A DNA stretch of 44,905 nt from an uncultured Candidatus Saccharibacteria bacterium (GCA_964522615.1 CAZFWR010000001.1:1-44905); one strand, 5' to 3'; counted from the first letter of the stretch, positions 17,337 through 31,204 are shown. Program-made: numbers and translations. Notes: generated by a model not told the origin, from the letters alone.

Positions 17337-17549
17337 ACTGGCGAGCCTTTTAAAAAGCTCGAAAGTTCTGTGGATTTCCTCCTTTATGTCTGTCAGAAAA
17401 TCCTTCGGAACTTCTGCCTTACGAAGAAACAATTCAGTCTCGCAAAGCTTACTGCGACGAGACAGAAGTGCGTTCAGAAGATCATGCGCTTCTTGCGGAG
17501 TTATCTCCATCGTCAGTGACTCGCTTACCTCCTTTTCCTTCATCGGCAT
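17328..17549 (-). CDS. Small all-helical hypothetical protein (73 aa from ATG; ORF track starts 3 codons earlier at GTG 17558)
   Basis: MPMKEKEVSESLTMEITPQEAHDLLNALLSRRSKLCETELFLRKAEVPKDFLTDIKEEIHRTFELFKRLASLG. SD GAGGTG lies 6 nt upstream of the ATG. Own consensus promoter upstream. No family recognised. Confidence 0.5.
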   Translation of the reverse strand: MPMKEKEVSESLTMEITPQEAHDLLNALLSRRSKLCETELFLRKAEVPKDFLTDIKEEIHRTFELFKRLASLG

Positions 17550-17601
17550 CTCGCTCACCTCTTTTTTACCCTTCGGGCTTATAGCCTTGATGGGTTAGAT
17601 T

Positions 17602-17784: not shown

Positions 17785-17839
17785 CGGTTGAGGTTTAACC
17801 TCAACCGACTAACAATCGGAAGTTGGACTTCCGATTGTT
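17785..17839 (-). other. Two adjacent perfect hairpins immediately 3' of tRNA-Thr
   Basis: AACAATCGGAAGT-TGG-ACTTCCGATTGTT (17811-17839, 13 bp) begins 5 nt after the tRNA CCA. CGGTTGAGGT-TTA-ACCTCAACCG (17785-17807, 10 bp) follows. Neither has a strong U-tract. Confidence 0.6.
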
Positions 17840-25743: not shown

Positions 25744-27009
25744 TTACAATTTAGTTCTCTTAATGTCTGCCCCTAAACTGCTTAATCTTTCTTCAATCTT
25801 TTCATAGCCGCGGTCAATCTGGCCAATATTGTCAATAATTGTTGTCCCAGAAGCTATGAGCCCAGCTAAAATCAAAGAAGCTCCGGCCCGAATATCACTG
25901 GATTCAATCCTCGCTCCTTGAAGGGAAGAAGGGCCAAAAACAAAAGCCCGATGAGGGTCAACCATTTCAATATCGGCTCCCATTTTCCGCAATTCATCAA
26001 TATAGCGAAGACGGTTTTCATATAAGGGATCGTGAATTAAACTTTTCCCTTTTGCCCGGAGCAGTAAGGGGACAATAATCGGCAAGAGGTCGGTCGGAAA
26101 GCCGGGATAAGGTAGAGCCTGGAGCTTAACTTTTTTAATCTGCGGAGAATAGGAAACGCTTACTTCTTGCTCTTTGATTTTCAAATTTGCTCCCATCTCC
26201 TGCAATTTAGCTAAAAAAAGAGTTAGATGGTCGGGAATAATGCCTTCCACCACTACTTCTCCGGGAGTCAAAGCTCCAGCAGTAATAAGCGTCCCTGCTT
26301 CTAAAGGGTCAGGGATAAGGGAATGAGATACTCCTCGCAAGGACTCAACTCCCTCTACTCGAAAACTATGGCTTCCAATAATTTCGATCTTTGCTCCCAT
26401 TTTTTTCAGCAAGCCAACTAAGTCCTGGACTTGAGGCTCTAAAGCTGCTCCCTGGATAAGTACTTCTCCGGGAGAAAGAACCGCAGCCAAAAGTAAATTT
26501 TCCGTAGCCGTAACACTAAATTCTGAAAGGACGATCTTTGACGTTTTTGAAGCTTCTTTCGTAAAGTGATAAAAATCATTCTGGAAAGTAACTTTTGCTC
26601 CCAGTTCCTCCAAGGCTCGTAAGTGGATGGCAATAGGACGAAGGCCGATCCGGTCCCCGCCCGGTCGAATCATCTTAAAAGACTTTAATCTTGCCAATAA
26701 GGCGCCAATAAAAAGAACTGATATTCTTGTCTGGCGCGCCTGGTCGAAATCCATTTTCTCCGGATTCAGGCCAGTCGTTTGCAATTCAACCTCTCTTTCT
26801 CCTTTCCACTCAACTCTCACCCCTAGGCTTTTCAAAACCTCAAGGGTATTCAAAACATCTTTGATCAAAGGAAGATTGCTAATCCGACAAGGCTCATCAG
26901 TTAATAAAGAAGCAATCAAAATCGGCCCGGCCGCATTTTTTGCTCCTCGGACTGCCACTCTTCCCGCCAGAGGACGTTGCCCTTGAATCAAGAAAACTTC
27001 TTTTCCCAT
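25744..27009 (-). CDS. murA: UDP-N-acetylglucosamine 1-carboxyvinyltransferase
   Basis: 421 aa. VRGAKNAAGPILIASLL, RPIAIHL and the overall EPSP-synthase-fold pattern. Confidence 0.95.
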   Translation of the reverse strand: MGKEVFLIQGQRPLAGRVAVRGAKNAAGPILIASLLTDEPCRISNLPLIKDVLNTLEVLKSLGVRVEWKGEREVELQTTGLNPEKMDFDQARQTRISVLFIGALLARLKSFKMIRPGGDRIGLRPIAIHLRALEELGAKVTFQNDFYHFTKEASKTSKIVLSEFSVTATENLLLAAVLSPGEVLIQGAALEPQVQDLVGLLKKMGAKIEIIGSHSFRVEGVESLRGVSHSLIPDPLEAGTLITAGALTPGEVVVEGIIPDHLTLFLAKLQEMGANLKIKEQEVSVSYSPQIKKVKLQALPYPGFPTDLLPIIVPLLLRAKGKSLIHDPLYENRLRYIDELRKMGADIEMVDPHRAFVFGPSSLQGARIESSDIRAGASLILAGLIASGTTIIDNIGQIDRGYEKIEERLSSLGADIKRTKL

Positions 27010-27070
27010 ATTCTGATAATAAACTAAAACTAGCCCTTTCGCAAGGTTAAAATCTTAACTAAAGGAATCT

Positions 27071-27775
27071 CTATTTATTCTCTGCCCGGAGGTTTTTCTC
27101 ATAAGCTTTGATTCTTTCTTTAAACTTATCCCAGTAAACCGGTTCGGATTCAATCATAGAGCAAATATCTTTATAGGGGCAGTAACGGCATTGAGGATTG
27201 CTCGGCCAGTACGGGAGTCGAGCGGGAATCAAATTCTGATCAATCTCTTGGCGGAGAACAGACAAATCTTCCAAGAGAGATTGGCAAAGCCCCTGGTCAT
27301 AATCAAGGGAATATTCCTTTAGCGCTTGAGTGTCCTTATTAACATAAAGCAGGATTCCTTTAACAATTTGGAAAAAATGAAGATAAAGCTGGAGCTGGTT
27401 CTGGTGGTCTGGCTTCGGCTCTTTCAGAACCTGGAAACCGTTCCGATTGATACTCTTGATATCTAAAATATAGTGCTCTCCCTTGATTGCCAAAAGAGCA
27501 TCTGCTCGACCGGAAATCATCTCTTGAGAAGGAATGTTGACCTCTTCCCCTTCTAGAACTCCTCTTTCCTTTAAAGCTTTAAGGATCAAACGGTGAATAT
27601 AATTACCGTGGTCAAATAAACGAAGAATCCTTGGTTCCAATTCCGGATGGGGAGCTTGTTTAAATTTAAAAAAGATAAACCGATGGCATTTTCCGGCATC
27701 AGTAACATAAAAACGAGTTTGCTTCCGAGAATGTTCCTGTTCTCGATAAAACTGATCAATAATTTCTTTTAGCAT
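27071..27775 (-). CDS. Cas4-like PD-(D/E)XK nuclease with 4-Cys (Fe-S) cluster motif
   Basis: 234 aa. N-terminal Cys (DAGKCHR). RecB motifs GRADAL, ILDIKS (D-x-K) and QLQLY (QxxxY). C-terminal CRYCPYKDIC (C-x2-C-x5-C). No cas1/cas2 or array nearby. Confidence 0.7.
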   Translation of the reverse strand: MLKEIIDQFYREQEHSRKQTRFYVTDAGKCHRFIFFKFKQAPHPELEPRILRLFDHGNYIHRLILKALKERGVLEGEEVNIPSQEMISGRADALLAIKGEHYILDIKSINRNGFQVLKEPKPDHQNQLQLYLHFFQIVKGILLYVNKDTQALKEYSLDYDQGLCQSLLEDLSVLRQEIDQNLIPARLPYWPSNPQCRYCPYKDICSMIESEPVYWDKFKERIKAYEKNLRAENK

Positions 27776-27845
27776 AAGATGAAATCAGATTAACACAAAA
27801 TGTGATTTATTCATAGTTTTTGTTATTTCTTCGCTTCTCGAACCA

Positions 27846-27873
27846 TTGACAAATAGCTAATATCAGTTATGAT
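27846..27873 (+). promoter_or_regulatory. Near-consensus promoter TTGACA-16-TATGAT for the small membrane-peptide pair
   Basis: TTGACA at 27846-27851, a 16-nt spacer, TATGAT at 27868-27873. About 36 nt upstream of the ATG at 27910. Confidence 0.5.
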
Positions 27874-27909
27874 TTAGGCGTTCGTTCATTATATAAGGGA
27901 GGTTCCAAA

Positions 27910-28056
27910 ATGGAAAACCGGGAAAAGCAGATGAAAGAATTGGATAAAATCGATAACTCGATAAAGAGACGATTTTCGGTTTTACTACTCGTGCTCATAG
28001 CGGCAGGATTCGTCGCCATAATAGCCGGAGTAGTTACCACTGTTTTCCATCCGTAA
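27910..28056 (+). CDS. 48-aa tail-anchored membrane peptide
   Basis: Below the ORF-track cutoff. MENREKQMKELDKIDNSIKRRFSVLLLVLIAAGFVAIIAGVVTTVFHP. SD AGGGAGG 7 nt upstream of the ATG. The 20-nt initiation region GGAGGTTCCAAAATGGAAA is identical to that of the next gene. Confidence 0.55.
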   Translation: MENREKQMKELDKIDNSIKRRFSVLLLVLIAAGFVAIIAGVVTTVFHP

Positions 28057-28071
28057 GAAGGAGGTTCCAAA

Positions 28072-28302
28072 ATGGAAAGTCAAGCAGAAAAAGAAGAAGG
28101 AAAGCAACTAGAAGAATTGGAGAAGAAGATAAGAACAATAAGGAGACAACTTGGGGGTATCAAGTGCACAGGGTCAGGAATAATAGTGCTCGCAATAGGG
28201 CTAGTAGTCCGCCCCCAGTCGCAGGTTGCTTTTCGAAGTCTCTTTGGCTTGGCGGTGGCATGTGCTCTTGTCGCCGGCATATTCCTGTGGCACTACCGAT
28301 GA
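28072..28302 (+). CDS. 76-aa membrane peptide (charged helical N-terminus plus 2 TM), paralogue-like neighbour of the 48-aa peptide
   Basis: MESQAEKEEGKQLEELEKKIRTIRRQLGGIKCTGSGIIVLAIGLVV...SLFGLAVACALVAGIFLWHYR. SD AAGGAGG 7 nt upstream of the ATG. Confidence 0.6.
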   Translation: MESQAEKEEGKQLEELEKKIRTIRRQLGGIKCTGSGIIVLAIGLVVRPQSQVAFRSLFGLAVACALVAGIFLWHYR

Positions 28303-28336
28303 AGACTTCCTCTCTCCGCTCATTAGCAGAAACTAG

Positions 28337-28369
28337 AAGAGGTCCCGAGTATCAAACTTGGAGCCTCTT
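28337..28369. terminator. Imperfect hairpin between the convergent membrane-peptide pair and rpsI
   Basis: AAGAGG-TCC...GGA-g-CCTCTT (9 bp with a 1-nt bulge and 14-nt loop), followed by TCTC on the plus strand. Confidence 0.3.
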
Positions 28370-28394
28370 TCTCAATAATATAATTAGAAATACT

Positions 28395-28802
28395 TTATCT
28401 TTTCTTCCATTGGGCCGCCCGCCGAGCTCGTTTCAGCCCATATTTCTTTCTTTCTCTCATCCGCGGATCTCGGCTGAGATAACTGGCTGATTTAAGCTGG
28501 GCTCTTAACTCTGGATCAAATTTTATCAAAGCCCGGCTAATACCGAGACGAATCGCTTCCGCTTGCGACCGAAAACCCCCACCCTGAACTAAAATTGTTC
28601 CCTCAAATTGATTCTCCATTCCCAGCTCTTTAAAAGGAGCAAGAACAATTTCCCGAAGAATCAACTGGGTAAAATATTCCTGCCAATCTTTTCCATTAAC
28701 CTCAATAACACCCTTTTTCCCGGAATAAAGCCTTACCCGAGCTCGAGCTGTTTTCCGACGCCCGATAGCCGCATAGTATTTTTTTCCTTTGGCCGCTTTC
28801 AT
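28395..28802 (-). CDS. rpsI: 30S ribosomal protein S9
   Basis: GGGFRSQAEAIRLGISRAL...RDPRMRERKKYGLKRARRAAQWKKR. Confidence 0.95.
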   Translation of the reverse strand: MKAAKGKKYYAAIGRRKTARARVRLYSGKKGVIEVNGKDWQEYFTQLILREIVLAPFKELGMENQFEGTILVQGGGFRSQAEAIRLGISRALIKFDPELRAQLKSASYLSRDPRMRERKKYGLKRARRAAQWKKR

Positions 28803-31108: not shown

Positions 31109-31204
31109 ATTGCTATTAAGAGGCTTTCTTAAGACTCATAATCGCTATTAAGAGGCTTTCTTAAGACTCATAATCGCTATTAAGAGGCTTTCCTAAGACT
31201 CATA
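31109..31204. repeat. 3 x 32-bp tandem repeat filling the rpsK-rpsD junction; each unit is a 7-codon mini-ORF
   Basis: Units at 31109-31140, 31141-31172 and 31173-31204, with one substitution each in units 1 and 3. Minus-strand unit: TATGAGTCTTAAGAAAGCCTCTTAATAGCGAT. Confidence 0.9.

Follow-up and report, generated by a model that had tools for sequence, protein, structure and literature searches.

Several kinds of described small membrane protein come close to the subject of this report, an array of two genes on the plus strand at positions 27846 to 28370 of a 44,905-nt stretch of DNA (GCA_964522615.1, CAZFWR010000001.1:1-44905; here called the window, in which all coordinates without a further label are counted) from the 360-kb genome (G000) of an uncultured Candidatus Saccharibacteria bacterium. 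Type I toxins of the Hok, Fst, and TisB class are small, hydrophobic, single-transmembrane (TM) chromosomal peptides that gene callers often miss, and class II holins, pinholin-antiholin pairs, and SLATT effectors have two TM segments in 60 to 90 amino acids (aa), with Gly-rich helices that could oligomerize. Prophage superinfection-exclusion proteins, such as T4 Imm, are small, fast-evolving accessory proteins of the inner membrane with strong expression signals, and in this the array is like them. DUF3040, DUF3493, and DUF2631 share with the array proteins a length of about 50 to 100 aa and an N-terminal charged helix with one or two TM segments after it; they were the nearest families by language-model features (scores of 0.76 to 0.80), and DUF3040 also gave a weak hidden Markov model (HMM) match (E = 0.011 to 0.07). 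These matches, however, are below the gathering threshold and confined to TM segments, and the three families belong to other phyla, are functionally uncharacterized, and are not known as variable tandem arrays.

The array is rather likely to be a self-contained, vertically inherited accessory operon that encodes a lineage-specific pair of small cytoplasmic-membrane proteins. We hold with good confidence the part of this reading by which the array is an accessory operon for membrane proteins that is expressed and is independent of the nuclease gene beside it.

Coding status of the two membrane proteins

The island is a 0.6-kb insert with rpsI on one side and the gene for a PD-(D/E)XK nuclease on the other, and its plus-strand unit (27846-28370) consists of a promoter, a leader of about 30 nt, two open reading frames (ORFs), and a terminator-like hairpin. 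The promoter and both ORFs described in an earlier note on this DNA were found where that note had placed them: a sigma-70-type TTGACA-16-TATGAT promoter at 27846-27873, a 48-aa ORF with one TM segment at 27910-28056, and a 76-aa ORF with two TM segments at 28072-28302. By a Kyte-Doolittle scan, the 48-aa protein has one (about residues 23 to 46) and the 76-aa protein two (about residues 33 to 47 and 55 to 74), in agreement with the expected topology. The smaller protein is tail-anchored, with a charged, probably cytoplasmic N-terminal helix; the larger likewise begins with a charged helix, after which comes a TM hairpin made up of a Gly-rich TM1, a short loop, RPQSQ, and TM2. Both carry their charge in the N-terminal 20 to 30 residues and have C-terminal tails of 0 to 4 residues.

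The array is present in nine further contigs and genomes, making ten loci in total: besides the window genome, these are G005, from another genus of the same family, and the contigs L033 and L072 to L078. In all ten, the ORFs have kept their length, start context, and TM pattern, despite saturation of the DNA (synonymous divergence, dS, above 1.5). As the conservation argument of the earlier note would have it, the plus-strand frames are open in relatives; they are the sole stop-free frames of both genes there, and indels are in-frame. Measured against the closest relative, the 48-aa gene has a ratio of nonsynonymous to synonymous divergence (dN/dS) of 0.38 and the 76-aa gene one of 0.35 (Fisher p = 6e-4), compared with 0.07 for rpsI and 0.04 for rplM. 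The array evolves fast, its genes being 52% identical where rpsI is 96% identical. Orthologues of the 48-aa gene measure 47 to 50 aa in seven loci and have the motif FSVLLL..AG..FHP in common. Judged from these alignments, the peptides are genuine small membrane-protein genes under purifying selection, with the TM pattern kept.

Opposite the peptides lie antisense ORFs of 67 and 66 aa, which the ORF track with its 60-aa filter reports; that this track does not show the 48-aa gene had been remarked. We rejected them as genes, since they are wobble-frame shadows with stops in relatives. The wobble-aligned antisense frame nevertheless has a dN/dS similar to that of the plus-strand frame, a point in favor of the view that the spacer is not protein-coding at all and would instead give the nuclease-murA operon a new promoter, or encode a non-coding RNA, with incidental ORFs. 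The island does separate the nuclease gene from the rpsI transcript and carries a conserved block by the nuclease start, and the selection signal of the 48-aa gene is marginal. However, it is hard to square incidental ORFs with length, start context, and TM pattern kept in ten loci at such divergence, with frames that alone are stop-free and take only in-frame indels, or with the lack of any Rfam match to the island; we find the non-coding view scarcely credible.

The two proteins are related to each other. Aligned pairwise, the similarity is weak (7/18 identities, E = 0.001), but profile-to-profile comparison aligns the one-TM family with the N-terminal helix and TM1 of the two-TM family (hhalign probability 93%, E = 2.5e-7), so the two genes are old paralogues.

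Breadth of the family

A profile search of 1.84 billion representative proteins returned eight clusters, all of 61 to 81 aa, and at 90% identity the family falls into only six clusters in a set of 5.8 billion proteins. Of 401 genomes searched in the order, only G000 and G005 gave a match, with none convincing in the other 399; small ORFs of like architecture elsewhere in the order (L036, L038, and L044) were excluded as members at E of about 1e-3 per genome. Searches of the ESM Atlas with the array proteins gave no match of at least 0.9. SecE/SecG and ATP-synthase subunit c were also considered for the combination of one-TM and two-TM proteins and for the R-P loop, and were rejected: there was no Pfam match, TM2 is without an acidic residue, and neither the N-terminal extension nor the topology fits. 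The array family is therefore unannotated and very narrow, while small accessory membrane proteins as such are a familiar kind.

A single insertion and a variable junction

In G005, the junction of rpsI and the nuclease gene holds plus-strand ORFs of 47 aa with one TM segment and 81 aa with two, behind a conserved TTGACA/TATAAT promoter and leader. A copy of the 48-aa protein that is 77% identical was located on contig L033, and in L033 and L072 to L078 the junction is as in the window as far as the contigs reach (to the nuclease or the rpsI flank). In seven island-less genomes of the family (G003, G004, and G006 to G010), rpsI directly abuts the nuclease gene, and in a tree of the nuclease the island-bearing loci form one clade with support of 100/99. 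We conclude that the island arose by one insertion, in a single sub-clade of this family of ultra-small genomes, followed by vertical descent; because sister clades are without it, the array is dispensable.

Gene content varies between loci. The order of one-TM gene then two-TM gene seen in the window is shared by L072, L073, L075, and G005. L033 and L074 have three genes, two-TM, one-TM, and two-TM (in L033, leader, 72 aa, 48 aa, and 75 aa), and L076 to L078 begin with a 61-aa two-TM gene followed by a different second gene, which the contig end cuts off. The leader that stands ahead of the 48-aa gene in the window stands ahead of the extra 72-aa gene in L033, which places the junction between the two arrangements inside the repeated initiation cassette described below; this is consistent with gene gain or loss, in either direction, by a putative recombination between cassette copies.

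The junction also varies beyond the array itself. The 76-aa gene shows a synonymous divergence four-fold that of its flanks (p = 8e-5). One contig from a salt-marsh run is without the island and joins 27768 to 28394, and another salt-marsh contig has 315 other bases in place of 27832-28284. In G001, a genome of the same genus as the window genome, the same junction holds an unrelated 55-aa gene with two TM segments (L022:912-1094), complete with its own TTGACA promoter, GGAGG, and strong terminator, and the assembly of G002, also of this genus, breaks at the junction. With cassettes swapped or absent, an unrelated gene in G001, and the break in G002, the junction behaves as a hot spot for small membrane-protein cassettes. 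The 55-aa gene locus of G001 has a duplicated AAAGGAGGAAAAAT motif, and after its terminator come about 400 bp with no obvious gene.

Such variability is what would be expected of a phage-exclusion or conflict cassette, that is, of small proteins in the inner membrane that keep phage DNA out or stop the effector of a competitor and are diversified by cassette exchange in an arms race. Fast evolution under a dN/dS of about 0.35, the elevated synonymous divergence, which implies allele exchange, co-occurring strains with absent or replaced cassettes, variable gene number, and the findings in G001 and G002 all fit this. Against it, the surroundings hold no phage or mobile-element genes, and neither PADLOC nor PHROGs gave a match; inheritance has been vertical from a single insertion; and very little of either protein is predicted to be exposed outside the membrane, namely a single loop, about 8 residues long, and a tail of 2 to 4 residues. 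The array thus differs from the prophage superinfection-exclusion proteins in having no prophage context, no sequence similarity to them, and minimal predicted external exposure. We consider a role in exclusion quite unlikely and continue to favor the vertically inherited accessory operon.

The neighboring nuclease and a toxic pair

The earlier note had proposed the Cas4-like nuclease as a nucleic-acid-targeting partner of the peptides. The gene (27071-27775, minus strand; PDDEXK_1, 7e-9) lies in the flank, outside the unit; its score with the Cas4 model TIGR00372 is 47.9, below the cut-off of 65, and in PADLOC it matches Cas4 models only. All 10 further genomes of the family that were searched have it, whether they carry the island or not (the G010 copy is interrupted by stops), and its dN/dS is 0.07. 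Since the nuclease is in all of these genomes and the island is limited to one clade, their adjacency reflects one vertically inherited insertion and gives no evidence of a link to the array. The nuclease gene has the look of a housekeeping gene for repair, which lost its connection to the rpsI transcript through the insertion. In G001 and G003, the ORF after the nuclease looks by eye like a 3-methyladenine-DNA-glycosylase, and the window and G005 hold short remnants before murA (window 27009-27071, L009:579-731, L022:1889-2437).

A wider rival reading makes the peptides a toxic pair that forms pores, be it as a type I toxin, as a holin/antiholin-like pair, or as an abortive-infection effector (three kinds that the earlier note had named for their resemblance). 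One protein would depolarize the membrane, and the other or an antisense RNA would restrain it, perhaps with the nuclease as partner. Their size, hydrophobicity, and Gly-rich TM1 are fitting, and there are sub-threshold matches to Pfam Phage_holin_3_6 (Holin-X; E = 0.013 to 0.025, 15 to 16 bits against a cut-off of 28.4), to SLATT_1 (NF033634; E = 0.004, 17.1 bits against a cut-off of 41, for a single paralogue), to PHROGs holins (E = 0.08 to 0.15), and, for one peptide, to a two-TM effector model in PADLOC (E = 0.04). All of these are far under the cut-offs and cover TM segments only, and the other seven of the eight peptides tested had no PADLOC match at E up to 1.

Each form of the toxic pair meets its own difficulties. 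The type I toxin could draw on a promoter-like site on the minus strand opposite the 5' end (27916-27888, 10/12 positions), the sole antisense match of its kind; its -10 element, however, is not conserved beyond the closest relatives (it is not kept in G005, L072, or L075), and the leader has no significant fold (-8.1 kcal/mol, z = -0.3). Unlike type I toxin genes, then, the array has neither a conserved antisense promoter nor a repressive structure in its 5' untranslated region, and it combines a conserved near-consensus promoter and initiation cassette with a long charged N-terminal region and a two-TM paralogue that always accompanies the one-TM peptide. In holins the charged tail is C-terminal, whereas here it is N-terminal, and there is no endolysin, spanin, or other lysis or phage gene nearby. 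As for an abortive-infection effector working with the nuclease, the co-occurrence check shows shared descent only, PADLOC lends no support, and the nuclease itself is found in every family genome searched, strongly constrained, and followed in relatives by the glycosylase-like ORF, which would fit a role in repair. None of the three forms is supported, and we regard a toxic pair as highly improbable; an accessory operon independent of the nuclease remains our reading.

A repeated initiation cassette

The two genes start within an exact repeat, GGAGGTTCCAAAATGGAAA, at 27898-27916 (GGAGG, 7 nt, ATG GAA A) and at 28060-28078, the second copy set within the 15-nt intercistronic spacer. The identity that had been reported is therefore real, although the repeat is 19 nt long and not 20. 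No other copy exists elsewhere in the genome, even with three mismatches allowed, and a comparison with the 32-nt start-codon repeat family of the genome showed no relation. Across the eight distinct diverged arrays of the ten loci, 16 of the 18 gene starts have GGAGG at -12 to -10, in a cassette made up of GGAGG, an A/T-rich spacer of 5 to 7 nt, ATG, and usually GAA; the adjacent intergenic bases differ, and the coding bodies behind the cassettes are less than 40% identical. A cassette present at nearly all starts ahead of such divergent coding bodies must be conserved or homogenized, and was not left behind by a recent duplication. Of the tandem duplication that the earlier note had derived from the repeat, the relatedness of the two genes is supported, but the repeat is no evidence of a recent event. 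An exact-pattern scan of genome and metagenome contig collections gave 65 cassette loci, of which one is identical to L077 and the rest are chance sites resembling strong ribosome-binding sites in unrelated bacteria; since nearly all matches arose by chance, the cassette is not a dispersed mobile repeat.

Two other repeats were seen on contig L075. Right before the nuclease start, at L075:560-680, are three tandem start-codon-anchored repeats of 32 to 33 nt that belong to the family found at 31109-31204 of the window. A palindromic hairpin, CGGTTGAGGTTTAACCTCAACCG, occurs both upstream of the array promoter in L075 and at about 17786-17808 of the window; the sites are unrelated, and the hairpin may be a small dispersed element.

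The promoter and leader are conserved along with the cassette. All eight loci that extend far enough have an unchanged TTGACA, and TATAAT or TATGAT is found in 9/9 aligned loci. With 11 of 12 consensus positions, the promoter is near-consensus, which bears out part of its earlier description as strong; it is not exceptional, being one of 19 sites in the genome with at least 11/12 matches. The leader (27874-27909) carries the motif TTAGGCGTTCGTTC at 27874-27887, whose core, YTCGTT, is kept in the leaders of relatives, and GGAGG at 27898-27902.

GGAGG in a lineage without an anti-Shine-Dalgarno sequence

The GGAGG had been described as a strong Shine-Dalgarno (SD) sequence. The motif is certainly present, but it does not appear to have the means of acting as one. 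In the window genome, 183 of 240 long ORFs are without an SD-like trimer and SD-like 5-mers are at about chance level, so that core genes are SD-less. The window genome's own 16S rRNA gene is unassembled; all six complete 16S rRNA genes retrieved from the family (L145, L146, and L147 to L150, that is, G005, G002, G008, G009, G006, and G007, and so including the island-bearing G005 and the same-genus G002) are without the CCUCC anti-SD. They end in GGAUC or GGAAC after helix 45 and continue A/U-rich, with no CCTCC within 213 to 400 nt downstream. It follows that the conserved GGAGG cannot act by canonical SD:anti-SD pairing. Loss of the anti-SD has been published for a subgroup of Parcubacteria (Tsurumaki et al. 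2022, PMC9297842).

Many near-consensus sigma-70 promoters in the window genome end 6 to 10 nt before an ATG (G000 C5:2260, C6:6494, C4:12086, C18:5818, and C28:1334). Operon-first genes would then have leaderless mRNAs, which fits translation without SD and anti-SD.

One other unit shares the design of the array. The gene for an SPFH/Band-7-like membrane protein of 426 aa (G000 C4:7540-8895; L144:1040-2393) has the same ACCATTGACA context at -35, the leader motif TTAGGCGYTCGTT, and GGAGG at -12; the combination of TTGACA, leader motif, and GGAGG occurs in only these two units of the genome. Orthologues in G001, G002, G003 (which is island-less), and G005 keep the GGAGG. The array and the SPFH-like gene may thus form a small class of co-regulated genes. 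Elsewhere in the window, a small soluble ORF at about 17340-17560 (minus strand) is preceded by GAGGTGA and adjoins a tRNA gene and a promoter with 12/12 consensus positions (minus strand, from 17730); it is another accessory gene with an SD-like lead.

Autoregulation of rpsU in Bacteroidia is a case of a minority SD-led gene in a lineage that mostly does not use SD sequences. The lineage of the window resembles it, and likewise the Parcubacteria without an anti-SD, in having core genes without SD sequences and a few genes with a perfect GGAGG at SD distance; Bacteroidia differ in that their anti-SD is present but occluded, whereas here it is absent. A search of the literature found no description of a GGAGG-led gene class in a lineage without an anti-SD. 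An idea that we put forward although we think it unlikely is that GGAGG-spacer-ATG serves as an expression signal without SD:anti-SD pairing, recognized by something else, be it a protein, a different RNA, or a different site on the rRNA, and marking a small conserved class of membrane-protein genes, namely the array and the SPFH-like gene. If this were true, the array would offer the clearest natural way into an undescribed mechanism of initiation or regulation, among other genes that are leaderless or SD-less.

Flanking features

The terminator-like hairpin at 28336-28370 (plus strand; -20.3 kcal/mol, z = -4.2) lies between the array and the convergent rpsI. L033 has kept it, with a G-C pair in place of a G.U pair; in the window its U-tract is weak and a terminator consensus scan made no call, while in G005 the hairpin is followed by a clear U-run and makes a clean terminator. 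The gene for ribosomal protein S9, rpsI (28395-28802, minus strand; Ribosomal_S9, 1.6e-41), is the last ribosomal gene before the island. More widely, the island is flanked by rpsI, rplM, rplQ, and rpoA and, on its opposite side, by the nuclease gene, murA, and mreB. In the region of about 21.1 to 44.7 kb, every ORF of at least 90 aa is on the minus strand except for antisense shadows, so that the array is indeed, as first described, a plus-strand unit in an otherwise minus-strand stretch.

Next to the ATG from which the nuclease gene starts (27775-27773, minus strand) is a conserved 33-nt block (27787-27819), which is near-invariant across the island-bearing loci despite saturated synonymous sites between them. 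On its minus strand, an extended -10-like element, TGnTAATCT, can be seen by eye 10 to 15 nt ahead of the nuclease ATG. The block is a candidate promoter or operator of the nuclease-murA operon, and may be a replacement for the expression that this operon lost when the island severed it from the rpsI transcript.

A model for the array

In the model that we propose, one bicistronic mRNA would be made from the array promoter, and the near-identical initiation cassettes would give similar initiation rates and hence a fixed ratio of the two products. By the positive-inside rule, both proteins would insert with the N terminus inside, the positive residues KRR and KKIRTIRR lying just before the TM segments. 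The proteins could then come together, through the Gly-rich TM1 and their charged N-terminal helices, as a small hetero-oligomer. Such a complex would serve membrane integrity or organization, and it may be co-regulated with the SPFH/Band-7-like gene of the same promoter-leader-GGAGG design. We offer the specific hetero-oligomer and its role in membrane integrity tentatively and find them somewhat doubtful.

Several points weigh against the reading of the array as an operon for such a pair. The hetero-oligomer and its role are inferred only from protein architecture and from the resemblance of promoter and leader in two units. Pfam, PHROGs, PADLOC, and NCBIfam scans with up to ten family members gave sub-threshold matches only, confined to TM segments, and thus no homologue of known function. 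AlphaFold2, given an alignment of 10 sequences, modeled the 76-aa protein as helices at residues 3 to 27, 35 to 45, and 51 to 75 with low confidence (predicted local distance difference test [pLDDT] of 64 and predicted template modeling score [pTM] of 0.31). The selection signal for the 48-aa gene taken alone has a p value of about 0.05. Lastly, with a conserved GGAGG and no anti-SD, an essential part of the unit's expression is not understood.

Implications for ultra-reduced bacteria

The array adds an unannotated family of small membrane proteins in ultra-reduced bacteria of the candidate phyla radiation (CPR), most of whose accessory biology is unknown, and it belongs to the sort of proteins that gene callers miss. 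The tempting reading of the peptides and the Cas4-like nuclease as a defense system is removed. The junction is a fixed place on the chromosome, at the end of the ribosomal-protein operon, at which strains acquire, lose, and exchange very small cassettes of membrane-protein genes. Its variable composition at this fixed junction and the SD-like cassette without an anti-SD together set the array apart from routine members of its kind, and the conservation of an SD-like motif in a lineage with no anti-SD is a paradox whose resolution would bear on how translation starts in the many Parcubacteria without the SD system.

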